Assembly (NCBI GenBank): GCA_049287045.1
Contig: JBAQFC010000008.1
Span: 22,198 to 86,197 of the forward strand
Source of the DNA: Minisyncoccia bacterium
GTDB taxonomy: Bacteria; Patescibacteriota; Minisyncoccia; Phycocordibacterales; UBA9973
Reading direction: 5' to 3'
Length of the DNA stretch: 64,000 nucleotides
Below are positions 5,182-53,691 of the stretch, piece by piece (the stretch's first letter is position 1; each line of letters begins with the position of its first letter). The notes beneath the pieces are model-generated. The model had not been told where the DNA came from and made no database searches. It saw only the letters and a program-made list of their open reading frames with translations. The position numbers and the translations under genes are program-made.

Positions 5182-6669
5182 TTACATTCCCATGAATTCT
5201 ACAATCGCATTTCGTAGGTCAGCTTCTATTTTATCATCCCAACCTGTAGTAAGCTTTGTCAGTAAATCTTTTTTGGTGCGGTCAAGATGAGCGTAAAAAC
5301 TCTCTTCCCAAGCTCTGATTTCTGTAGTTTCTAGTTCATCCAAATATCCTTCGTTTACAGCAAAGATACTTGTAACTTGTTTCGCGACAGATACAGGAGA
5401 ATATTGATTTTGTTTTAGAAGCTCAGTCACTCTCTTTCCTCTGTTGATAGCTTTTTTGGTTTCGGGATCTAGATCAGAATCAAACTGAGCAAAAGACTCT
5501 AGCTCACGGTATTGAGCCATCGCTAGTTTCATCTTACCCGCGACTTTCTTCATTGATTTTATTTGAGCAGAAGAACCGACGCGAGAAACAGAAAGACCGA
5601 CGTTGATAGCTGGGCGAAGACCTTTGTTAAAAAGACCTGTCTCTAAGAAAATCTGTCCGTCAGTGATAGAAATAACGTTGGTAGGAATATAAGCAGACAC
5701 GTCACCAGCTTGAGTCTCGATAATAGGCAAAGCAGTGATAGATCCACCACCGTAATTTTTATTCAATCGGCAAGCACGTTCCAATAAACGAGAGTGCAAA
5801 TAGAAAACGTCTCCAGGGTAAGCTTCACGACCTGGTGGACGGCGAAGAAGAAGAGAAATTTCTCGGTAAGCGACAGCGTGTTTAGAAAGATCATCGTAAA
5901 TTATTAAAACGTCTTTTCCTTTGTCCAAGAAATATTCTCCGAGTGCTGTACCAGAGTAAGGAGCAAGATATGAGAAAGCTGGACCATCAGATGCTCCGGC
6001 TGAAACAACGATAGTGTAATCCATCGCTCCTGCTTCTTTTAATTTTGAAACGATACGAGCAACTTTTGATTGCTTTTGTGAAATAGCGACATAGATACAA
6101 ATAATATCTTCGCCTTTTTGGTTGATGATAGTGTCGATAGCTATGGCAGTCTTTCCTGTTTGACGGTCACCGATGATAAGCTCGCGTTGTCCGCGACCAA
6201 TCGGAATCATGGCATCTATGGCCTTTATACCAGTCTGTACGGGTGTTTTCACAGGTTCACGAGTCATAACACCTGAAGCTACTTTTTCTACAGGATAGAC
6301 AGCATCTGACTGAATAGCTCCAGCTTCATCGATGGGTTCACCTAGAGGGTTTACCACACGTCCAATGAAACCTTTACCGACAGGGATAGAAAGAATTTTG
6401 TTTGTTCTCTTTACAGTTTCTCCTTCTTTAATTTTAGAAAAATCTCCGAGCACGATAGCTCCAACAGAATCTTCTTCCAAGTTGAGTGCGAGCCCAATAG
6501 CTCCGGAATCAAAAGAAACCATTTCTGAAGACTGACACTTTGCTAGGCCAGAAATCTTTGCGATTCCATCTGCGACAGAAAGCACTGTGCCGTATTCATA
6601 CATCTCGGCCCCTCCTTCAAAACCAGCAATTCTCTTTTTTAAATTTTCTATTGTTGCATTCGCACTCAT
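5182..6669 (-). CDS. atpA: F0F1 ATP synthase subunit alpha
   Basis: Walker A GDRQTGKT; 495 aa; alpha-specific C-terminus. Confidence 0.95.
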
Positions 6670-6682
6670 AATAATTTTTTAA

Positions 6683-7057
6683 TTAACTTGTAATAGTTTT
6701 TTCTAATTTTTTCAGACCAGTCATAATGCTCGAATCATAAATCTTTCCTCCGAACTTCGCTCTAAATCCTGCAACCAGTTCTTTTTTGATTTTTAATGAT
6801 TCAGTCAGGTGGTCAGCTTTCAGGAAACTCTTTATTTGTTTTGCAGTCTCACTCTTTATCTCATGAGCTGTTTCTATCTGGATACCCTTCTTTTCTTTAT
6901 CTTGTTCAGTGATTCTTTCTAAGTGATAAAGAACTGAGTTCATCTGTCCTTTCAAATTTCTCTTTTCAATAAAACTAAAAAACTTCTGGTCTAAGCCTTC
7001 AGTATTCTCTTCAGACAATTCGAATAAAGCCTGAGCCAGTTGTTTTGATTTAATCAT
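6683..7057 (-). CDS. atpH: F0F1 ATP synthase subunit delta (short OSCP-like)
   Basis: Sits between atpF and atpA; 124 aa with weak OSCP-like similarity; shorter than the usual ~180 aa. Confidence 0.65.
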   Translation of the reverse strand: MIKSKQLAQALFELSEENTEGLDQKFFSFIEKRNLKGQMNSVLYHLERITEQDKEKKGIQIETAHEIKSETAKQIKSFLKADHLTESLKIKKELVAGFRAKFGGKIYDSSIMTGLKKLEKTITS

Positions 7058-7059
7058 TA

Positions 7060-7587
7060 TTATTTCTTAGCCAACATTGCATTGATAATTTCATCACCTT
7101 TACCAGCAGCTACGTAGCCTTCAACCATTTTTCGTACACCGACAGAGACGAGCTCTGCAGCTTCTTTTCTGATAGCTTCGTCGCCAGTCTTCTTTTCTTT
7201 TTCTACATCAAGTCGAGCTTGTTTTAATATTTCTTCTTTTTCAAGAGTAGCTTTGTCTTTTGCCTCTTTTACTATGTCTCTACCGTCAGCTTGTGACTGA
7301 GAAATAATATTTTTTGCATTGTCCTTTGCTTCTCTTGTGATTTCTTCCTTTTTTAGACTTGCTCCTGCGAGCTCTGCTTTTGCATTTTCGGCATCAGTCA
7401 ACCCGGTCTTTATCTCATCTTCACGGTCATCCATCATCTTGCGAAGTGGTTTCGCGGCAATAAAATATAAAGCTAGAAAAACCAACGCAAAGTTGAATAG
7501 CTGTGCAAGCATTATCTTCCAATCTATGTGAAATGTTGAAATTAGTTCATTCATGATTTTAATTTTGACAAGGTTGAACCTTGTCAA
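7060..7587 (-). CDS. atpF: F0F1 ATP synthase subunit B
   Basis: N-terminal TM helix followed by a long charged helix rich in E/K/A. Confidence 0.75.
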   Translation of the reverse strand: MTRFNLVKIKIMNELISTFHIDWKIMLAQLFNFALVFLALYFIAAKPLRKMMDDREDEIKTGLTDAENAKAELAGASLKKEEITREAKDNAKNIISQSQADGRDIVKEAKDKATLEKEEILKQARLDVEKEKKTGDEAIRKEAAELVSVGVRKMVEGYVAAGKGDEIINAMLAKK

Positions 7588-17512: not shown

Positions 17513-17562
17513 TAAATTGAATTATAGCAAAAATTAAAAATAGGTGAAAGTAAAAATCCCCT

Positions 17563-17596
17563 CCAACCAAAGTCGGAGAGGATTTTTACTTTCTGC
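17563..17596. terminator. Rho-independent terminator downstream of dnaK
   Basis: aaaatcccctcc...ggagaggattttt stem-loop followed by a T-run on the minus strand. Confidence 0.5.
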
Positions 17597-20992: not shown

Positions 20993-21023
20993 ATTTTTAT
21001 ATTAACATAAAAAATTTACAATA

Positions 21024-21050
21024 AAAAATCCCTCGTGAGAGGGATTTTTT
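21024..21050. terminator. bidirectional terminator between grpE and rpsI
   Basis: aatccctc-gtga-gagggatt with flanking A- and T-runs. Confidence 0.6.
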
Positions 21051-44972: not shown

Positions 44973-46874
44973 ATGTTTAAACATCTTCCACATAAACATC
45001 TCAAAAAGAAACACCACAAAAAAGGTGTGGACGAGACACAAACGGAGAAGCCGAAAGAACCAGTTCCTCCTTTTGTTGCTTTTGGGCTCTCGTTTTTTGG
45101 CTTATTATTTTTATTATTACCATTACTCATAGGAATATGGGTATTCATAGCTTTTGAAACAAAATATAACGACCGATTTTATCCAGGTGTTTTTATTGGT
45201 AGTGAATCTATTGGTGGTCAGACCTATGATGAAGCACTCGGTCATTTTAAAGAAAAAGCAGAAGAACTACAAAGGAATGGGCTGAATGCAAGCTTTGAAA
45301 CTTCCAAAGGAATTCAAAAAATAAATATACCAATATCCACAACAGGATTAACTTCAGATAATTCTGTGGAATACTTTACACTCGATGAATGGGAAAATGA
45401 TTTAAAAGAAGCTTACGCTTGGGGTCATGAAAAAAATATATTACACAGACTAAAAGAACAATTTTCTCTCTTATTTGTAAGAAAAAATTTCAAGTTTTCT
45501 ATTTCTATTCAAAAAGAAGCCGTGAACTCATTACTTGAAAATGATCTTTCTGGTTTTTTGAAGAAAAATATACCTGCTAGATTTTTATCCACTGAAAATG
45601 AAATTTCTATTTCTAAAGAAGAGACAGGAGAAATTATAAACAAAGAAGAAATTCTAAATATTTTAGAGAAAAAATTAATTCAATTTGATACGTCTCCTAC
45701 CGTTTTCAAAACAGAAACAGACATCCCCACAGTAAAACAAGATGACCTAAAACCATTTTTGATTTTTGCTGAAAACTTTTCACAAAAAACAAATTTTGTA
45801 TTTCAATATAAAGGACACAAATGGAAAATAGCAGGACCAAAGCTTGTAACATGGCTGACAATAAATAAAGAAGGCAAAATCGATATTGACAACACAAAAC
45901 TAAACGATTATTTTAGTACAACAGTTACTAAATTTATTAATAACCCACCTCAAAATAGCCGTTTTGAAATTCAAAATGGAAAACTGATTGAAATAGCTCC
46001 AGGTAAACCTGGCAACATCATAGATATAGAAAACATTGTACAAAAAATTGAAAAAATAATTCATGAATCAGAAATGAATTTAGATACCCTAAATAATATC
46101 CAATATTTACCTATTGAAACTATTAATGTTGAACCCAACATAACAAAAGAAACAATATCAAAATATCAAATAAGGGATTTAGTTGGGGAAATACGTACAA
46201 GTTTTAATGGGAGTAGTAAAGATCGAGAACATAATATAAAAATAGGAGTCGCTGCTATCAATGGAATATTAATAGCCCCAGGCGCAGAATTTTCTACTGT
46301 ATCTTCTATTGGTCCCGTTACAGGAAAAGAAGGTTATGTAAAAGAAACGGTAATCAAAGAAAATAAAACCACCAAAGAATTTGGAGGAGGTTTATGCCAA
46401 GTTGCTACTACCCTTTTTCGTTTAGCTCTTAACGCTGGATTATCTATTACAGAAAGAATGAATCACCGTTTTGTTATTGGTTATTATAATCCACCAGGAC
46501 TCGATGCAACAATCTACGGCCCTCATCCAGATCTTCGTTTTGTAAATGACACAGGTGGTTTTCTGCTCTTACAAGCAAGAGTAGAAAATAAACAAGTTAT
46601 AATGGAACTTTACGGACAAAAAGATGGCCGCTCTGTAGAGATATCAAAACCATATATACATGACAAAATTCCTGCACCAAAAACAAAATATATACAAAGC
46701 AAAGATATTCCTGTTGGAAAAACACAATGCACAGAGACACCACACGATGGTGTGACTACTGAAGTTTTATATTCTGTAAAATACCAAGACGGTACAACTA
46801 AAAAAAGAATTTTCAAAAGTATCTACCAACCTTGGCAAAAAGTATGCCTTGTTGGTACAGCCTTAACGCGCTAA
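44973..46874 (+). CDS. VanW family protein
   Basis: N-terminal TM; VanW core GGGLCQVATTLFRLALNAGL...YNPPGLDATI. Confidence 0.7.
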   Translation: MFKHLPHKHLKKKHHKKGVDETQTEKPKEPVPPFVAFGLSFFGLLFLLLPLLIGIWVFIAFETKYNDRFYPGVFIGSESIGGQTYDEALGHFKEKAEELQRNGLNASFETSKGIQKINIPISTTGLTSDNSVEYFTLDEWENDLKEAYAWGHEKNILHRLKEQFSLLFVRKNFKFSISIQKEAVNSLLENDLSGFLKKNIPARFLSTENEISISKEETGEIINKEEILNILEKKLIQFDTSPTVFKTETDIPTVKQDDLKPFLIFAENFSQKTNFVFQYKGHKWKIAGPKLVTWLTINKEGKIDIDNTKLNDYFSTTVTKFINNPPQNSRFEIQNGKLIEIAPGKPGNIIDIENIVQKIEKIIHESEMNLDTLNNIQYLPIETINVEPNITKETISKYQIRDLVGEIRTSFNGSSKDREHNIKIGVAAINGILIAPGAEFSTVSSIGPVTGKEGYVKETVIKENKTTKEFGGGLCQVATTLFRLALNAGLSITERMNHRFVIGYYNPPGLDATIYGPHPDLRFVNDTGGFLLLQARVENKQVIMELYGQKDGRSVEISKPYIHDKIPAPKTKYIQSKDIPVGKTQCTETPHDGVTTEVLYSVKYQDGTTKKRIFKSIYQPWQKVCLVGTALTR

Positions 46875-47420
46875 TGCTACTTGTATTTTTGTTTCAGGAG
46901 GTCTTACAACAATAAGTCTTTTCTTCCAACCCTTCATAAAATCTGTAACTGATACTTTTCTGATACCATCGTGTTTTCCTGGATCGTTGTAATAAATAAA
47001 ATCTTCGTCAAAACCAGTTACGACAACGAGGTGACCATAAGGACTTTTTGGATTAAAACCACGATGAATTGATGCCACAGCAGGACCCTCTTTTATAATA
47101 TCTTGAAACTCAATAAAGGCACTCTTTTTGTCTAGTTTTGAAAAATCAAAGGTTCTACCGACTAGGCCGTGTTTTACAGCCAAGGCTGCAAGCCCGTCAT
47201 GTTTCCACCCTACGTTCTTTTGGTAAGCACCTCCAGCAATACCTTCCTCAAGAACCTTTTGAACTGAGGTTGTGTTGGGTTTATAGTATTCAATTATCAT
47301 TGCAAGGTCTGCTACTCCGCAACCTTTTTGCTTCCATGCAACAGATGAAATATCACTTATTTGGGAATATAAGGGTACGTTATAAGGCATTGTAGGCGGT
47401 ATCGTTACTGGTATTATCAT
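46863..47420 (-). CDS. papain-like cysteine peptidase (C39-like domain)
   Basis: YSQ...GCGVADLAM (Cys) and GHLVVVTGFDEDFIYYNDP (His region) are typical of Peptidase_C39_2. Confidence 0.55.
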   Translation of the reverse strand: MIIPVTIPPTMPYNVPLYSQISDISSVAWKQKGCGVADLAMIIEYYKPNTTSVQKVLEEGIAGGAYQKNVGWKHDGLAALAVKHGLVGRTFDFSKLDKKSAFIEFQDIIKEGPAVASIHRGFNPKSPYGHLVVVTGFDEDFIYYNDPGKHDGIRKVSVTDFMKGWKKRLIVVRPPETKIQVALAR

Positions 47421-47457
47421 ACTACAATTCTAACATAAATTGACCCAAAGTCAATAT

Positions 47458-47826
47458 TTATAGAGTTTTATTATTCTGTTCTCTGTAGGAGTATATAATT
47501 AAAAAAACAGCGGTTGCCAAGATAGATACATCTCGAAAAATAAGATCTAACAGTTTGTAATTAAAAATCAAGATACCAACAAGCATGAACGCAGCAATTA
47601 TACTTGGAATTAAAATTTTTCTACCAATAACAAGCCATAAACCAACCGTGATTTGCAAAATTGCCCAGCCTGTAATTAGAAATCCTTGAGGTAATAAATT
47701 CGTCATAAAAGGAGGAAAAAATCCAAGCCAAAAAGAAGGATTAATCAAACTAGCAATAGCTGCATAAATAAAAGGAAAAGCTAAACCAATCCTAGCTATT
47801 AAAATTTCTATTTTATTAGTATTCAT
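47458..47826 (-). CDS. DoxX-like small membrane protein
   Basis: Four TM helices, 122 aa. Confidence 0.35.
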   Translation of the reverse strand: MNTNKIEILIARIGLAFPFIYAAIASLINPSFWLGFFPPFMTNLLPQGFLITGWAILQITVGLWLVIGRKILIPSIIAAFMLVGILIFNYKLLDLIFRDVSILATAVFLIIYSYREQNNKTL

Positions 47827-47863
47827 ATCCCCTAATTATACCAAGCCATAATTTATTTTCAAA

Positions 47864-47912
47864 ATAAAAAATCCCCAACAAAGAGTTAAGGATTTTTATG
47901 TTGTGCGTTGTA
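47864..47912. repeat. ~45-nt partial duplicate of the tRNA-Tyr 3' end plus its terminator hairpin
   Basis: ataaaaaatccccaacaaagagttaaggatttttatgttgtgcgtt aligns with ataaaaaaatcccttaacaaagttaagggattttttattgtgcgtc at 49551-49597. Confidence 0.4.
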
Positions 47913-47939
47913 ATAGAGGATGTTAGGCATTATATATTT

Positions 47940-49307
47940 TTATTTAATACAAGACCTCACCCCTTCTTTTTTGATGATATCCCTAACACTAACCTGTTTG
48001 TAAACTGATTCCATCGCCATACGTTGGGTATTTCCATCTTGGTAACTTGTCTCTTTTTGTAAAATATCAAACTTTGTATCATATTCAGCCTGTGGAAGTA
48101 GCCCCATAAAATATATGGTAAAAGGGTGATCTTTTATTAGGTTAGATGCATTATCCTCGTCATATATGTAGGCAACTGAATTATTAGAGCTTTTTTTCCA
48201 TGCTATACCACCAAGAGTATCTTTGGTGCCCGCAGGAGAGGTCAACAACATAGAATAGTGAGCTCCTGAATTTTTTACAGGAAGATCTAACCCCGTTGGG
48301 TCACTGGTATCAAGGGAATCTCCCACAAAAACTCCCCACTGGTGTGCAGTTTCATGTAGTAATGTTAGCATCCCGCAATTATTTCCTATTGTTAATAGAC
48401 CTAAATTGTTCTTTTCCTGAAGATAACAATTTTTAGTAGAATCGACATCAAGTAAATCATCTAAATAATTTATACCCTCTAATTTCCTGTTGCTTCCATA
48501 AGTTGAAGAATTATTGGAGTACGAACTAGAAAGTCCTATACCACCAATATTGTTTATTGTATTAAAATGATAATTACTTCCGGTCGTATTTGTTGTATTT
48601 GTAAAAATTGAAATAAAATCATAATTATCACCGTGTGTTTCATAAAATTTTTTTGTTATTAATGCTATATTGAAATTTTCAGGAGTTATTCCAAGGATTT
48701 TTCCATCCATAAAAACTGCGTCATCAGGTATAGACATTATGGCAAGTCCTCCAGTTGCAAAACCAAAAGACCAAGGAAAACGATTTTTCACATATGCAAG
48801 TTCATCTGTGTATCTCTGTTTTTGCGAAAGAAAAGTCGGATCATTAATGTCTCTAGCAACAAAAATCAACGCCATTGTGAAACTTTTTTGATTACAATCA
48901 TATAAGGAAGTGGGCGTATTATCAGGAATAGTAGAAAGTGTGGGTGTGTAAATAGTTACAGAGTTAGGAGTAGAGATATTTGTATTAGTAGGGTTAGGTG
49001 TAAGTGAGAAATTCATCATTGCTTTAGTATTTTTACCAATAAAACCATCAGCTTTTAACCCATGGTCATTTTGCCATTTTTTTATAACAATAATTGTTTT
49101 TGGACCCAATTTACCATCAACTATTAACCCTAGATTTAGAGTTGTATTTAAAAATCTTTGAAGCTCCATAACTGCTTCACCTCTACTCCCATTTCTAAGA
49201 GTTGTGGCACCAAAATTGTAGATTGTTGTTGCCTTAATTGTAAATGGAATGATTAAGAAACCAAAAAATAAAAATATTAGAACAACTTTATATTTTTTCA
49301 TTTTCAT
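47940..49307 (-). CDS. secreted zinc metallopeptidase-like protein with peptidoglycan-binding domain
   Basis: Signal peptide, PG_binding_1-like segment (LRNGSRGEAVMELQRFLN...ADGFIGKNT), and HETAHQWG (HExxH) near the C-terminus. Confidence 0.5.
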   Translation of the reverse strand: MKMKKYKVVLIFLFFGFLIIPFTIKATTIYNFGATTLRNGSRGEAVMELQRFLNTTLNLGLIVDGKLGPKTIIVIKKWQNDHGLKADGFIGKNTKAMMNFSLTPNPTNTNISTPNSVTIYTPTLSTIPDNTPTSLYDCNQKSFTMALIFVARDINDPTFLSQKQRYTDELAYVKNRFPWSFGFATGGLAIMSIPDDAVFMDGKILGITPENFNIALITKKFYETHGDNYDFISIFTNTTNTTGSNYHFNTINNIGGIGLSSSYSNNSSTYGSNRKLEGINYLDDLLDVDSTKNCYLQEKNNLGLLTIGNNCGMLTLLHETAHQWGVFVGDSLDTSDPTGLDLPVKNSGAHYSMLLTSPAGTKDTLGGIAWKKSSNNSVAYIYDEDNASNLIKDHPFTIYFMGLLPQAEYDTKFDILQKETSYQDGNTQRMAMESVYKQVSVRDIIKKEGVRSCIK

Positions 49308-49369
49308 ATTATACCAGTTTCAATCCAATAACAGCTAGCAAAAATAATCTTATAAAATAAGCCTGAAAA

Positions 49370-49490
49370 AAGTGTGCGTTAGGAAGGAGTTTCTCTCCTT
49401 ACAGGAGCAGTAGGCCTTTTCTAATTCTTCGGGAAGGAGTTTCTCGGCTTACAGCCGCAGTATACCTTTTGCATCCCGCAATGCGGGATA
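49370..49490. repeat. two tandem ~53-nt tRNA-Tyr-derived degenerate repeats plus a 17-nt palindrome
   Basis: Unit 1 (49372-49420) begins gtgtgcgttaggaaggag, cf. the tRNA 3' end gtgcgtcgggaaggat. Both units carry a hairpin with loop TTACA (anticodon-loop-like TGTAA on the minus strand) whose stems differ compensatorily (ctcc/ggag vs cggc/gccg). Palindrome atcccgcaatgcgggat at 49472-49488. Confidence 0.45.
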
Positions 49491-49558
49491 AGCAAAAGCT
49501 TTTCGAATCCTTCATAAGAGCAAATAAATTTGCTCTTACTCGACGACACATATAAAAA

Positions 49559-49581
49559 AATCCCTTAACAAAGTTAAGGGA
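49559..49581. terminator. terminator hairpin downstream of tRNA-Tyr
   Basis: atcccttaac-aaa-gttaagggat flanked by A/T runs. Confidence 0.55.
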
Positions 49582-49591
49582 TTTTTTATTG

Positions 49592-49674
49592 TGCGTCGGG
49601 AAGGATTCGAACCTTCGAAGCCCGAGGGCGAGAGATTTACAGTCTCTTGTGATAGACCACTCCACCACCGACGC
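49592..49674 (-). tRNA. tRNA-Tyr (anticodon GTA), type II with long variable arm
   Basis: Acceptor GCGTCGG/CCGACGC, anticodon stem AGAGA/TCTCT with loop CTGTAAA, variable arm GCCC-TCG-GGGC, T arm GAAGG-TTCGAAT-CCTTC. Confidence 0.8.
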
Positions 49675-49680
49675 ATATAT

Positions 49681-50058
49681 TTAAACTTTCTTTTTATACT
49701 TTTGATATTTTATATTATCAATAGTAATTTCATTTCTACAATCAACCTCTTTCCAAGGAATAGAATACATTTCTCCACGTTCTGTATAAACAAAAAGGAA
49801 ATCGAAGGAATTTAAATTATATTTCTTTGAATAATTAAAAGATTGATTACCGCCCGTGATTCTAAGACCTACTTTGCATTTGTCATCACTATAGATACCT
49901 GCAAATTTTACTTGGACACGATGCAGAATGTTATTTTTTTCTACTACAAAATCGTAATCTTTTTTGTCGCCTATAGGCAAGCAAACCTCGTAACCACAAG
50001 TTACATAATACCGTATTGCATTAGCAACTGCAAGGTCCCCTTTTTCTTTGGTTTTCAT
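49681..50058 (-). CDS. PD-(D/E)XK-fold nuclease-like small protein (Hjc/Mrr-like)
   Basis: GDLAVANAIRYY...GYEVCLPIGDKKDYDFVVEKNN...VQVK fits a D-x(n)-(D/E)xK restriction-endonuclease-like core; 125 aa; abuts tRNA-Tyr. Confidence 0.35.
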   Translation of the reverse strand: MKTKEKGDLAVANAIRYYVTCGYEVCLPIGDKKDYDFVVEKNNILHRVQVKFAGIYSDDKCKVGLRITGGNQSFNYSKKYNLNSFDFLFVYTERGEMYSIPWKEVDCRNEITIDNIKYQKYKKKV

Positions 50059-50143
50059 ACTGTCTATTATAACAGACTACTACACTGCTAACAACTTTTT
50101 TAACAAGGTTCAACCTTGTCATTAAAATAGAATCATAGTTTAT

Positions 50144-51007
50144 TTACTCAGGTTTATTAGCTTTAAATATAGCCTTGGGAGCAGTGTAAATAGTATCATT
50201 TTCTGTTTCAGAATAATTCATTAAAAGTTTTTCTTCTTCTGAAAGATTTTCTTTAATAAAAGAACGAAGTTGTTCTATTTTTTCTTCAGATATTTTTTCT
50301 AGTTGTTCATTGTCAGATTCTTCAAGGAAACCTTTTTCTTCTAAGATTCTCAATCTGTCAGCAGAAACAAATTCTTCTTTTCTATTACGTATTGAAAGAT
50401 TAGGAAAAACATTATGTTCAACATTTGAATTCTCAAAACCAGTATTATCAAGCAAAGAAATAACTTCTTCTTTTTTAGGGAAATATCGGTTTCTTACCAA
50501 AGAATCAAAACCAGCGAGTTCATCCTTTTTTTGAACTATTTTTGAAAAAAGTTGCTGTGATTTATCATCAAGAGCTAATTCCCAAATTATCATTTTTCCA
50601 CCTGGTTTAAGAATTCTATAAAATTCCTTCATCATTTGTTCTTGGCTTTCTTTATCTACTTCATGTAATCCCATTTTATTTACAATAGTATCAAAGTGAT
50701 TTTCTGGAAAAGGAGTTTTTATTGCATCTGAAATAACAAAATCAAGGTTTTGTCCTTGTAAACTTTCTTTGGCTCTTGATAATTGTAAATCACTACTATC
50801 AAGCAGGGTAATTTTTGTATCTAAATTTTTTAATTTTATTGTTTCTAGTAATCTCTTTGAGACAGCACCATAACCACAACAAGCATCTAAAATAACCTGC
50901 TCATTTTGTGGGTTAACAATTGAAACTAATTTTTCGAAATCACTTTCATCTATTGAGTGTATTTTCTCATATGAGACTATACGTTTTTGATATGAATTAT
51001 TTTCCAT
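50144..51007 (-). CDS. class I SAM-dependent methyltransferase
   Basis: Motif I ILDACCGYGAVS, motif post-I LLDSSD; small-molecule/rRNA-type MTase fold rather than a DNA MTase. Confidence 0.7.
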   Translation of the reverse strand: MENNSYQKRIVSYEKIHSIDESDFEKLVSIVNPQNEQVILDACCGYGAVSKRLLETIKLKNLDTKITLLDSSDLQLSRAKESLQGQNLDFVISDAIKTPFPENHFDTIVNKMGLHEVDKESQEQMMKEFYRILKPGGKMIIWELALDDKSQQLFSKIVQKKDELAGFDSLVRNRYFPKKEEVISLLDNTGFENSNVEHNVFPNLSIRNRKEEFVSADRLRILEEKGFLEESDNEQLEKISEEKIEQLRSFIKENLSEEEKLLMNYSETENDTIYTAPKAIFKANKPE

Positions 51008-51015
51008 ATTTACAA

Positions 51016-53691
51016 TTAAGCTTTCACCGAAGAATTAGTTCTCACTCTCAAAGAGCTCTTGATTTTGGCTTTCTTAGTATCAATTACAATCTCATTATCT
51101 TTCATTGAGACAAAAATAGTATCCCCTTTTTTCGCTTTAAGAGAAATAATAAAAGTAGCAACAGAATTTAAAATCTTATTTTGAATTAGACGATTTAATG
51201 GGCGTGCTCCATAAGAAGGATTGTAACCTTCTTTTGCAAGGTAAGAAAGAGTCTCGTCTGAAATTTCAAAACCAATTCCTTTTATGGATAATCTATCTTT
51301 GACAACCTTTATTCTTAGGTCAACTATTTGTCTAATAGCTGCCTCCGGCAAGATATCGAAAACTATAGTCTCATCTAATCGATTCAAGAACTCTGGGCGA
51401 AAATGATCTTTCAAAGTCTCCATGACTTTATCTTTCATGCTGTTATAGTTTTGTTGGTCGGACGCATTTGAAAATCCGATTGATTCCATTTTATTTATAA
51501 ATTGGGAACCAATGTTGGAAGTAAGAATAATAATTGTATTTTTAAAATTGACTACTCTTCCCTTTCCATCAGTCAATCTGCCATCATCAAGAACTTGCAA
51601 TAATAGATTGAAAACTTCTGGGTGTGCTTTTTCAACTTCATCAAAAAGTATCACTGCATAAGGTCGATGTCTGATTGCTTCTGTTAATTGACCAGATTCA
51701 TCATGACCGACGTATCCTGGTGGAGAACCAATAAGTTTCGAAATAGAGTGACGCTCCATGTATTCAGACATATCAACTCGAACAAGAGATTTGTCATCGT
51801 TAAACATAAATTGTGCCAAAGCTTTTGTTAGTTCTGTTTTTCCAACACCAGTGGGTCCCAAGAATATAAAGGAACCGATTGGGCGGTTTGGGTCAGAAAT
51901 ACCAGCTCGTGAACGACGTATAACGTCTGCCACGCGTTTGATTGCCTCGTCCTGCCCAATAACTCTATTACGTAATTCATCTTCCATTTTCTCTAGTTTC
52001 TCACGTTCTTCTTCAAGCATTTTAACAAGAGGAATACCTGTCCAACGAGCAACAACTTCTGCAATATCCTCAGAGGTTATTTCTTCTCTTAAAATTTTTC
52101 TAGATTTTTGTAATTTTTTCAAACGTAAAAGTTTTGTTTCGAGTTCTTTTTTTAAACTTGGAATTTTTCCATAACGTATTTCTGCGGCACGAGAAAGATC
52201 AGCTCGAGCTTCGGCATTCTCTGCTTCAAGACGAAAAATCTCAAGTTCTTTTTTGATTGAACGTATTTCTGTAACAGTTGTTTTTTCATTCTGCCATTTA
52301 AGTTCTAATTCTTTTGTTTTTTCACGCAAGTTACCAATCTCTTTATCAATATCTTTCACGCGTATCTTGGCTTCTTTATTTTCTGCAGTTTCTTTTTTCA
52401 ATGCTTCTTTTTCAATTTCAAGACGCATTATTTTTCTATGTGCTTCTTCTAAAATTGGAGGTTTATTTTCAAGTGCAATTTTTAAGGATGAAGCAGCCTC
52501 GTCAATAAGGTCTACAGCTTTATCTGGCAAAAATCTATTTGTGATATATCGAGTACTCAAATTAACAGCTGAAAGAATCGCATCATCAGTAATGCGTACA
52601 CCATGGAAAAGTTCATATTTTTCTTTAAGTCCACGTAAGATAGCTATTGCATCTTCCACAGAAGGTTCATCAATAAAAACAGGTTGAAAACGACGAGCCA
52701 AGGCTGGGTCTTTTTCTATATGCTTTTGGTATTCTTTCAAAGTGGTTGCTCCGATTGCACGAAGTTCCCCACGAGCCAAGGCAGGCTTTAACATATTTGA
52801 AGCATCCATAGTTCCCTCTGCACCTCCAGCACCGACGATGGTATGAATCTCATCAATAAAAAGAATTATTTTACCGTCAGACCTCTCTATTTCTTTCATT
52901 ATGCCTTTTAATCTTTCTTCAAATTCTCCACGATATTTGGTACCAGCAATCAATGAACCCAAATCCAAAGAAACAAGTTCTTTGTCTTTTAAAGATTCTG
53001 AAACATCGTTCTTGGCTATTCTTTGAGCTAGACCTTCTACTACAGCAGTTTTACCTGTACCTGCTTCACCTATCAATATAGGATTATTTTTAGTACGACG
53101 GGAAAGAATCTGCATTATGCGCATAATCTCACTATCACGCCCAATAACTGGATCAAGTTTATCTTCCTTGGCCAACTTGGTCATATTACGAGTATATTTG
53201 GTAAGTAAACGAAATTTTTTGGTCTCTGATGTATCGGTAATATTTTGACTACGAAGTTCTTCTAAAATTTTTATTACCACATCTTTATGAATTCTAAATC
53301 GAGCTAAAAGTTCACGCGCTTCACCTGGTATTTCCAACATCGCGATAAAAAGATGTTCTGTCGAAACAAATTCATCCTTTAATGACTCTGCTAATTTTAC
53401 TGAATGTTCTATTGTTTGTGCCAAATCAGGATTCAGATAAATCTGGAATGAAGGAGAAACAGTTGTTTGCGACTCAGGTGATTCAATTAATTCTAAAACA
53501 GAATCGGTCAAGAGCATCGTATCAATTTCCATTTTATCTAAAATAGAATTCACCATACTCTCCTCCTGGAGTAATAATGCAGCAAGTAAATGCAAAGAAG
53601 AAACGTGGTTTTGTCCACGTTCAATCGCCAGCTCGTGAGCTTTTTTTATTGCGTCTTTGGCTTTAGTTGTAAATTTATTTAATGGTGGCAT
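51016..53691 (-). CDS. clpB: ATP-dependent chaperone ClpB
   Basis: N-domain, two AAA+ modules (GEAGTGKT; GPTGVGKT), long M-domain coiled coil; 891 aa. Confidence 0.9.

Follow-up and report, generated by a model that had tools for sequence, protein, structure and literature searches.

A conserved structured element 3' of tRNA genes in Paceibacteria-type Patescibacteria, framed by copies of the tRNA 3' end and probably selected as an RNA

Results

The tRNA-Tyr locus and its trailing element

The DNA analyzed here is a 64,000-nt stretch of contig JBAQFC010000008.1 from a Minisyncoccia bacterium (the window, to which all coordinates given without a locus label refer; L-numbers denote loci from other genomes), and our subject is a structured element of about 185 nt that trails its tRNA-Tyr gene. 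Along the minus strand, the locus comprises a type II tRNA-Tyr(GTA) gene with no encoded CCA (49591-49674; found by ARAGORN and scored at 60.3 bits by the Rfam tRNA model); a terminator hairpin directly 3' of it, T_B (49554-49587), seen as an inverted repeat, I2, with 26-nt arms that are 85% complementary; the element itself, with two P5 modules (49366-49552), as supported by a match to covariance model R1, by its fold and by its homologues; and a gene encoding a secreted PG_binding_1/HExxH peptidase recognized with Pfam (47940-49307). T_B is palindromic, and with the flanking tRNA 3' end and the inverted copy of that end it forms a longer palindrome (49544-49598). We argue below that the segment 49552-49366 on the minus strand is probably a member of a conserved structured family located 3' of tRNA genes in Paceibacteria-type Patescibacteria, with a core that has been selected as RNA.

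All parts of the element are given on the minus strand. Beyond T_B it opens with the 5' strand of helix P1, GUGUCGU (49543-49549), which repeats the 3' strand of the tRNA acceptor stem in inverted and degenerate form and in the predicted fold pairs with ACG-C-ACAC at 49372-49379; the resulting helix has 7 bp and one bulge, and uses the distal of the tRNA copies. There follow the P2 hairpin (49515-49538), with 9-11 bp and a UUUA loop, all 9 pairs of which covary; the P3 5' strand GAAGGA with the joiner UUCGAAAAG (49499-49513), which together copy the tRNA's T-loop and the 3' strand of its T-stem in inverted orientation (reverse-complementing UUCGAAUCCUUC); and the P4 hairpin CUUUUGC ... GCAAAAG (49466-49498), which is supported by covariation and variable at its tip. 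Two modules complete the element. Module a (49422-49465), recognized by repeat comparison, covariation and fold, contains in order the joiner GUAUACUG, hairpin P5a (CGGCU-GUA-AGCCG, 49445-49457), the joiner AGAAAC, the P3 3' strand UCCUUC (49433-49438) and a degenerate acceptor copy. Module b (49372-49421) is its tandem duplicate on the evidence of repeat comparison, shuffles and fold, and runs through GAAAAGGCCUACUG, hairpin P5b (CUCCU-GUA-AGGAG, 49395-49407), GAGAAAC and a direct copy of the tRNA 3' end, UCCUUCCUAACGCACAC (49372-49388). A run of six U residues (49366-49371) stands directly 3' of the closing helix and is likely to mark the 3' end of the element's transcript.

An earlier inspection of the letters without database searches (the sequence-only reading) had noticed two tandem units of about 53 nt at this place, each starting like a tRNA 3' end and each bearing a hairpin with a GTA-containing loop and compensatory stem differences. 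The units are real: 49382-49420 and 49432-49470 share a 39-nt core at 85% identity, with a period of 50 nt, their motif occurs twice in the window and not once in 100 shuffles, and both carry GGAAGGAG, which is close to the tRNA's own GGAAGGAT. The hairpins with a GTA/TAC loop are likewise as described, P5a and P5b differing by two swapped pairs. What does not hold is the proposal that these are decayed tRNA-like units, as the element is held at the same position across genomes whose ClpB DNA is 68-79% identical and its stems covary; neither ARAGORN nor the Rfam tRNA model (RF00005), even at E up to 10, finds a tRNA in 49366-49552. The units are a local duplication of the P5 module together with the distal tRNA copy, within a conserved folded element.

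Distribution and conservation of the family

One genome per species was scanned with the final 22 nt of this tRNA. The scan gave 83 loci, almost all of them from Patescibacteria (Paceibacteria, Nomurabacteria and Minisyncoccia), and in approximately 17 of the 83 the similarity extends past the tRNA and its terminator through the region of the units. Homologues lie directly 3' of tRNA-Tyr in L069, L052, L017, L012, L024, L027, L025, L045, L080 and others. At 74-88% identity to the window element they are as well conserved as the flanking ClpB gene of the respective genome pairs, in which the remaining intergenic DNA does not align. Model R1 has a single match in the window (49420-49550, 137 bits, E 1e-37), and a motif scan of metagenome contigs gave 8 loci, every one of them 3' of a tRNA gene (7 tRNA-Tyr and 1 tRNA-Ser(CGA)). 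The 3' ends of the members, as judged by eye, are mostly a U-run or a hairpin terminator. Rfam 15, applied to the window at gathering scores, to 47700-49800 at E up to 10 and to 16 related loci, reported only tRNAs and noise; motif scans of viral contigs returned nothing, or three chance 18-mer matches that carried neither a model match nor a tRNA; and our search of the literature found no described equivalent in Patescibacteria, the nearest topic being the group I introns at anticodon position 35/36, which are unrelated.

Fold and covariation

Helices P2-P5 are recovered by RNAalifold, with compensatory changes at 23 of the 33 pairs. In alignment A1 the paired cells amount to 93.4%, as against 73.4% in column shuffles, none of the 500 shuffles reaching the observed value, and when the partners are slid the figure is 41-55%. 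Among 26 model-aligned sequences, an alignment that was fitted to the model and so leans towards it, 94.8% of cells are paired versus 67.5% after shuffling, and 31 of the 33 pairs are compensatory. The GAAGGA/UCCUUC pairing of P3 closes a three-way junction of P3, P4 and P5, to which the acceptor-derived strands can add P1, and the joining strands UUCGAAAAG, GGUAUACUG and GAGAAAUU are conserved. Folded singly, the minus strand of the window element reaches -58.7 kcal/mol (z -3.5), and a count of 22 G-U against 8 A-C combinations, read on the tRNA strand, gives modest support for that strand. The bases on either side of GUA covary as a pair (U-A 13, C-G 3 and U-G 1 in alignment A1), so the hairpin, which the sequence-only reading had called anticodon-arm-like, ends in a triloop and not in the seven-nucleotide loop of an anticodon arm.

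Two resemblances were considered and set aside. A hammerhead-like core (CUGA ... CGAAAC around a hairpin) proved superficial, as the U7-G8-A9 core positions are absent and Rfam gives no match, and a T-box on the plus strand, where UAC would be the Tyr codon, was rejected in view of the strand evidence and of a motif that forms a terminal triloop.

Flanks copied from the adjacent tRNA

The order of parts is constant in the family: terminator, inverted copy of the tRNA from T-loop to 3' end, P2, the P3/P4/P5 junction, and direct copy of the tRNA 3' end. The 5' flank is either contiguous (UGUGCGUCGGGAAGGAUUCGAA in L077, L051 and L070) or split by P2, and is the reverse complement of the tRNA's UUCGAAUCCUUCCCGACGCACA; the core then runs through the joiner CGAAAAG, P4, the joiner GGUAUACUG, P5 with its GUA triloop and the joiner GAGAAAUU; and the 3' flank UCCUUCCCGACGCACA is a direct copy of the tRNA 3' end, covering tRNA positions of about 57-76. 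The inverted and direct copies pair with each other to form P3 and sometimes P1. Inverted copies of the tRNA end are seen essentially only where the element or a remnant of it is present, which rules out a general tendency of tRNA terminators to extend into the tRNA.

The element is not confined to tRNA-Tyr. R1 matches lie 3' of tRNA-Trp (L064, L067), tRNA-Leu(CAG) (L021) and tRNA-Arg(CCG) (L080) at 45-55 bits, and the tRNA-Ser copy of L091 scores 110 bits, having been among the training sequences of the model; an orphan R1 copy in L050 has no tRNA beside it. A model-free scan adds tRNA-Trp copies in L051 and L078 and tRNA-Leu copies in L046 and L053, that of L046 reaching only 20.5 bits and being assigned by its common architecture. 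Throughout, the flanks match the cognate tRNA, for tRNA-Ser in the acceptor strand. Thus the 5' flank at the tRNA-Trp of L064, GAAGAAUCGAA, reverse-complements UUCGAUUCUUC and is unlike GGGAG, the 5' T-strand of the tRNA itself, and the T-loop variant UUCAAAU of L096 is mirrored in the adjoining element as AUUUGAA and UCAAAAUU. The core is nonetheless homologous from one tRNA context to another, GGAAAAGUACCCGCG being present both in the tRNA-Arg copy of L080 and in the tRNA-Tyr copy of L024. The inverted copy was also considered as a primer-binding site, that is, as the complement of a tRNA 3' end including CCA, and this was rejected, as no UGG is found even where the CCA is encoded.

A second subfamily keeps the same frame with extra hairpins, whose loops are CAGCAG and GAGCGACGGCGA, and with GGUGCCCAG in place of GGUGUACAG; its members (L007, L036, L040, L046, L051, L053, L070, L077 and L078, recognizable by CAGCAG/GCGACGGC) were assigned by architecture and not by the model. 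In the elements of these nine loci (for L051, its tRNA-Trp copy) CGCC-G-GA-GCG stands opposite CGC-GA-GGCG, giving tandem G-A pairs beside a one-base bulge; the arrangement is reminiscent of a kink-turn or GA motif and may be a candidate site for an L7Ae-type protein. Two further partial copies of tRNA-Tyr were observed outside the elements. About 20 nt past the element of L027 lies a third partial copy of the tRNA 3' end, UUUCCUAACGCACA, resembling the window's UCCUUCCUAACGCACAC, and in L085 (approximately 590-675) a partial copy of the tRNA-Tyr 5' half (GCGUCGGUGGUAGAG ... UCAAUUACAACAGAC), with a 30-nt hairpin inside it, sits directly upstream of tRNA-Tyr and appears to be another partial duplication of that gene.

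Copy A and the peptidase gene

The sequence-only reading also reported that about 45 nt of the tRNA-Tyr 3' end and its terminator recur 1.7 kb away. The repeat is genuine (47864-47908 against 49552-49596, 76% identical without gaps), with a gapped local score of 48 where the maximum in 2000 shuffles is 27, and it is not merely a match of A/T runs at chance level, as the hairpin loop region (AACAAAG..GTTAAGG) and TTGTGCGT are part of it. Reverse-complemented, TTGTGCGT gives the final 8 nt of the tRNA region (the final tRNA bases and the first trailer bases), and the tRNA-derived part of the repeat is limited to these 8 nt, the remainder being the terminator hairpin. Further terminator hairpins of the AAAAAATCCC...GGGATTTTTT type stand at 17552-17587 and 21023-21050, so the hairpin type is generic in this genome, one flavor of terminator being reused; the pair at 47864 and 49552 nevertheless has more in common than terminator type alone. 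The distal copy, which we call copy A (47864-47908, minus strand), joins the 8 nt that end the tRNA-Tyr region (ACGCACAA) to a hairpin (47897-47867) homologous to T_B. It is closer to the tRNA-Tyr terminator of L069 than to the window's own (blast E 4e-5), which marks it as a true copy of tRNA end plus terminator, and it is the same kind of duplication as frames elements elsewhere. Copy A now acts as the terminator of the peptidase gene, and a DoxX-like gene comes next on the minus-strand reading.

Between copy A and the tRNA, the peptidase gene is the sole open reading frame (ORF) of more than 100 aa in 47864-49600, and no integrase was found among the ORFs of 45500-52000 or in a Pfam scan of six neighboring proteins, in agreement with the sequence-only reading, which had noted the lack of one in the interval. 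That reading nevertheless took the interval for the remnant of an integrated island, and here two relatives speak against it. In the distant L096 the same order recurs, with tRNA-Tyr at 5700-5784, the element at 5825-5964 (114 bits) and a peptidase gene at 6001-7332 whose product is 51% identical, and L093 has a 52% homologue of the peptidase in the same ClpB/tRNA-Tyr/typA neighborhood. The peptidase gene therefore does not look like a recent foreign island; it is a conserved neighbor of the element and not part of it. An extended -10 box lies immediately 5' of the peptidase ATG both in the window (TGGTATAAT, 49301-49316) and in L096 (GATACAAT, 5985-6003), which argues that the element is not the leader of this gene. 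The window peptidase has 455 aa and the public copy begins at the second ATG; together with the position of the box, this suggests a leaderless mRNA or one with a very short leader.

Indels and rearrangement at tRNA-Tyr

In L012, the 104 nt past the distal tRNA-end copy match, at about 80% identity, what stands directly 3' of tRNA-Tyr in L031, L032 and L049, which are empty loci without the element, and the sequence directly 3' of the L012 tRNA itself is dissimilar to the empty-site sequence (55 of 104 positions identical). The unit made up of terminator, inverted copy, core and direct copy is thus an indel that has a direct repeat of the tRNA 3' end at either border. The direct repeat may be longer, as in L007, where it is about 55 nt and includes the terminator; the direct copies in the window are 49591-49604 (the tRNA itself), 49372-49388 and 47902-47908, in addition to the duplicated terminator. 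This pattern fits insertion with duplication and precise loss through recombination between the repeats alike, and does not discriminate between them. Relatives thus bear out the suggestion that an empty site might be found, in that the small element shows empty and filled sites; for the peptidase gene they point in different directions, as L069 lacks it here and L096 keeps the order tRNA-Tyr, element, peptidase. The number of modules also varies, with one P5 module in L069, two in the window and four in L045, and L091, L046 and L078 have two full elements in tandem, so that expansion by unequal exchange between tRNA-derived repeats appears to be recurrent, with independent origins elsewhere.

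The closest relative, L069, has flanking genes that are 92-94% identical to those of the window and a very different arrangement between them. Its ClpB-DoxX interval is only 370 nt (within 1707-2078) and holds the tRNA-Tyr/element module in inverted orientation, whereas that of the window (47871-51056) is 3.2 kb and contains, besides this module and the peptidase gene, a methyltransferase gene (50144-51007) and a free-standing PD-(D/E)XK (PDDEXK_5) endonuclease gene (49681-50058, minus strand; Pfam 6e-21); L069 lacks the methyltransferase, endonuclease and peptidase genes at this site. Two genomes do not polarize the inversion and indels, and an error in the L069 metagenome-assembled genome is possible. 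The PDDEXK_5 gene ends 6-12 nt before tRNA-Tyr in three genomes (6 nt in the window), and its counterparts in L046 (525-893) and L051 (2834-3202) encode proteins of 63-67% identity. Its product matches PDB 2OST (E 1.5e-8), which we take to be the tRNA-intron homing endonuclease I-Ssp6803I, and on this similarity and placement the gene looks like one of homing-endonuclease type that travels with or targets the tRNA-Tyr gene. In L064 (3427-4299, plus strand) and L057 (3082-3888) a Zn_ribbon_recom ORF converges on tRNA-Tyr and runs antisense through it; it is without the N-terminal catalytic domains of a large serine recombinase, which suggests that these ORFs are remnants of elements that were integrated at tRNA-Tyr in these relatives. 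tRNA-Tyr is, in short, a hot spot of rearrangement.

No recombinase family recurs beside the elements when the ORFs within 3 kb of 28 of them are clustered, the neighbors being housekeeping genes only; what looked like a recombinase cluster consisted largely of tRNA-Tyr translated in antisense, and L064 and L057 alone have true homologues. The flanking ORF families are ClpB, TypA, and sigma-factor-like and MiaA-like proteins, the last two named from sequence starts only. Upstream of typA/bipA we observed a conserved leader, AACUUGUUGUUUUUAG..AUGUUAUUAUAAAA, then a GC hairpin and a U-run before the ATG (L012, approximately 2455-2545; between tRNA-Tyr and typA in L031, L032, L049, L060, L073 and L019), which looks like a promoter with an attenuator-type hairpin.

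Discussion

The finding which we consider most in need of explanation is that a segment of noncoding DNA, made in part from copies of the neighboring tRNA, keeps its fold while its sequence drifts and keeps its place 3' of tRNA genes across a wide group of Patescibacteria. We favor the interpretation that it encodes a selected, tRNA-derived small RNA. Under this proposal the element would have originated through partial duplications of tRNA-Tyr, recombination or palindrome correction would keep its flanks the same as the adjacent tRNA, and its core would be maintained by selection as an RNA that is transcribed in the direction of the tRNA. Transcription could occur by read-through of a leaky tRNA terminator or from a start of its own, ending at the U-run or terminator past the closing helix; the T-arm- and acceptor-like closing helix would supply tRNA-like ends, and the conserved junction would be the working surface, most probably the binding site of a putative protein or RNA partner tied to tRNA metabolism.

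Several observations weigh against this interpretation. The principal weakness of the RNA reading is the strong-looking terminator that stands between tRNA-Tyr and the element. The bias of G-U over A-C is modest (p about 0.02, with sequences that are not independent), the plus strand also folds well, and as both strands of the window fold better than shuffles a single sequence cannot decide the strand; folding of single-stranded DNA would, moreover, yield the same covariation. P1 is good in about 9 of 23 members (approximately 40%) and weak or absent in the others, so tRNA-like processing of the ends cannot be general, and the element is missing from about 80% of related tRNA-Tyr loci, which makes it dispensable. 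Last, flanks derived from the target tRNA, together with empty and filled sites, also fit a mobile DNA element.

This last possibility is the main rival of the RNA reading. A non-autonomous mobile or insertional DNA element, akin to a miniature inverted-repeat transposable element (MITE) or a cis-mobilizable element (CIME), might target the region from T-loop to 3' end of tRNA genes; the direct repeat would then be an attachment (att) site or target duplication, the inverted copy and hairpins would serve a recombinase acting in trans at the level of DNA or single-stranded DNA, and any RNA would be incidental. Empty and filled sites differ by exactly the unit of terminator, inverted copy, core and direct copy, although the empty sites are accounted for just as well by precise loss through recombination between these repeats. 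The direct repeat begins inside the T-loop, where tRNA-targeting integrases classically cross over, one and the same core occurs 3' of five tRNA species with cognate flanks each time, an orphan copy exists in L050 along with tandem arrays elsewhere, and some relatives have recombinase and homing-endonuclease genes at tRNA-Tyr. The elements themselves, however, have no linked integrase or transposase at the 28 loci surveyed, and the viral contigs scanned hold no real copies. The stems covary freely while the sequence drifts, which is the mark of selection on a fold and not of terminal repeats recognized by a transposase; the copy at the ClpB/tRNA-Tyr position has been kept across genomes whose divergence is saturated; and the two copies of L080 are highly divergent from each other and so give no sign of recent transposition. 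Because the stems covary, the syntenic copies are old and no recombinase is linked, we judge a mobile DNA element to be an unlikely explanation.

There is a bolder possibility, which we entertain only tentatively and consider rather improbable. The family could represent an undescribed class of tRNA-gene-linked RNA that spreads by copying the cognate T-loop-to-3'-end segment in both orientations, with the inverted copy guiding insertion or recombination beside that tRNA, as in an RNA- or hairpin-guided mobile element that targets tRNA genes, or with the acceptor/T minihelix serving as a decoy or alternative substrate for the enzymes of that tRNA.

On the view closest to the sequence-only reading, the repeats are neutral scars, that is, att-type duplications left by a peptidase island, with units that are functionless, decaying fragments of a tRNA-Tyr pseudogene. 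Part of this stands: the repeats do derive from the tRNA-Tyr 3' end and do bracket an indel, there are three copies of that end in direct orientation along with the duplicated terminator, ACGCACA occurs on either side of the peptidase gene, L069 has no peptidase gene here, and parts of a unit can be read as the T-arm and acceptor strand of tRNA-Tyr. The units are not decaying remnants, however, as they score within a conserved and covarying family and the tRNA finders see no tRNA in them, and the conserved gene order of L096 and the want of an integrase among the ORFs and proteins examined count against the island. For the tandem units this view is already largely refuted, and as a whole we think it improbable. 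Nothing points to the companion suggestion of tRNA-derived elements resembling short interspersed elements, there being no reverse transcriptase or A-tail, and copies that nearly always adjoin a tRNA gene.

It is more improbable still that the GUA hairpins imitate the anticodon arm of tRNA-Tyr and titrate or regulate a protein that binds it (TyrRS, Tgt or MiaA), in the manner in which the E. coli thrS operator imitates tRNA-Thr. The loop context CUGUAAG does resemble the anticodon loop CUGUAAA, there are two GUA hairpins in the window and four in L045, and tRNA-Tyr has exactly the same acceptor and T-stem sequences. But the U and A around GUA covary as a pair, leaving a loop of 3 nt where an anticodon arm has 7; GUA is kept beside tRNA-Ser(CGA), tRNA-Trp(CCA) and tRNA-Leu(CAG); and the second subfamily has longer hairpins without GUA in place of P5. 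The GUA loop, retained beside tRNAs for other amino acids and closed by a covarying pair, does not mimic an anticodon. A role as cis-regulatory 5' leader or riboswitch of the peptidase gene is least credible of all: the element does precede the peptidase ATG, by 60 nt on the same strand in the window and by 37 nt in L096, but the U-run ends it and the -10 box stands between it and the ATG in both genomes, and elsewhere the downstream genes vary (typA, convergent ClpB and others) and many copies have a terminator of their own.

If the selected small RNA that we favor is the correct account, the element is of wider interest. Patescibacteria (the candidate phyla radiation, CPR) have tiny genomes with little spare DNA, and yet many of them retain a folded element of 130-190 nt after several tRNA genes, one that diverges as slowly as a chaperone gene and adds a structured RNA family without a match in Rfam 15. 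It would also offer a clear case of a new RNA structure arising from partial duplications of tRNA genes, and would have its natural counterpart in the rtT repeats of E. coli tyrT. For annotation there is a practical consequence, in that such loci resemble att scars or tRNA pseudogenes and may be misread as the borders of islands. Should the flanks guide insertion, or mimic the cognate tRNA for an enzyme, the element would be a new mechanism by which mobile or regulatory RNA is tied to tRNA genes.

Comparison with known systems

The element fails the defining tests for a tRNA pseudogene, an island, a MITE, a riboswitch leader and the known ribozymes, and its relation to described systems is one of partial likenesses. 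As with MITE-type repeats (Correia/NEMIS, REP/BIME, BOX and RUP), it is small, is present in several copies per genome, has inverted termini and lies beside terminators. Unlike them, its termini come from the target tRNA (Tyr, Trp, Arg and Leu, and for Ser the acceptor strand), the "duplication" comprises about 20 nt or more of tRNA, its location is almost only directly 3' of tRNA genes, and its internal stems covary without conservation of sequence. With tRNA-like RNAs, such as the YrlA Y RNAs (PMC4201824), mascRNA, the tRNA-like structures of viruses and the tRNA-like domain of tmRNA, it shares a helix of acceptor/T-stem type in tRNA sequence and a T-loop-derived UUCGAA at its junction. The Rfam models of such RNAs give no match to the window or to related loci, the T-loop of the element is split by two inserted hairpins, its acceptor helix is often missing, and its flanks are copies of the neighboring gene and not an independent mimic.

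The small RNAs of tRNA trailers and spacers (3'ETS-leuZ of E. coli; PMC8166272) are similarly encoded in the transcribed flank of a tRNA gene, with ends presumably set by tRNA processing and termination, as is proposed for our element. Those RNAs are short and mostly unstructured Hfq-dependent sponges, whereas the element is a multi-helix fold of 130-190 nt with tRNA-derived closing helices, in hosts that are not known to use Hfq-type regulation. The att duplications of integrative elements (attL/attR, and the integrase-less CIME remnants) resemble the present loci in having direct repeats that run from the T-loop region to the tRNA 3' end or beyond, and in the occurrence of empty and filled sites among relatives with the tRNA intact. 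They differ in that the segment bracketed here is 100-200 nt, without an integrase and with an inverted copy of the tRNA end and a conserved covarying structure, and in that a homologous core is combined with flanks that differ from one tRNA species to the next.

The closest likeness is to the E. coli tyrT-tyrV repeats and RttR (rtT), where tandem repeats directly 3' of tRNA-Tyr each carry a copy of the tRNA 3' end. There the units are 178 bp, the overlap with tyrV being the last 19 nt of the tRNA, and the units of the window have a period of 50, so that the comparison is one of analogy only. RttR is annotated as an RNA of about 170 nt beginning 7 nt past the tRNA; rtT is released from the tyrT transcript by processing. 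Rfam, which includes an rtT family, gives no match to it in the window, either with gathering scores or with E raised to 10, and there is no sequence similarity. The inverted copy of the tRNA end that the element carries is missing from the E. coli repeat, and we know of no evidence for a covarying junction structure in that repeat. Whereas rtT is confined to tRNA-Tyr in enterobacteria, the element family is found 3' of at least five tRNA species across a class of Patescibacteria. In arrangement, then, and without homology, the tyrT-tyrV locus of E. coli is the nearest analogue of the tRNA-trailing element described here.

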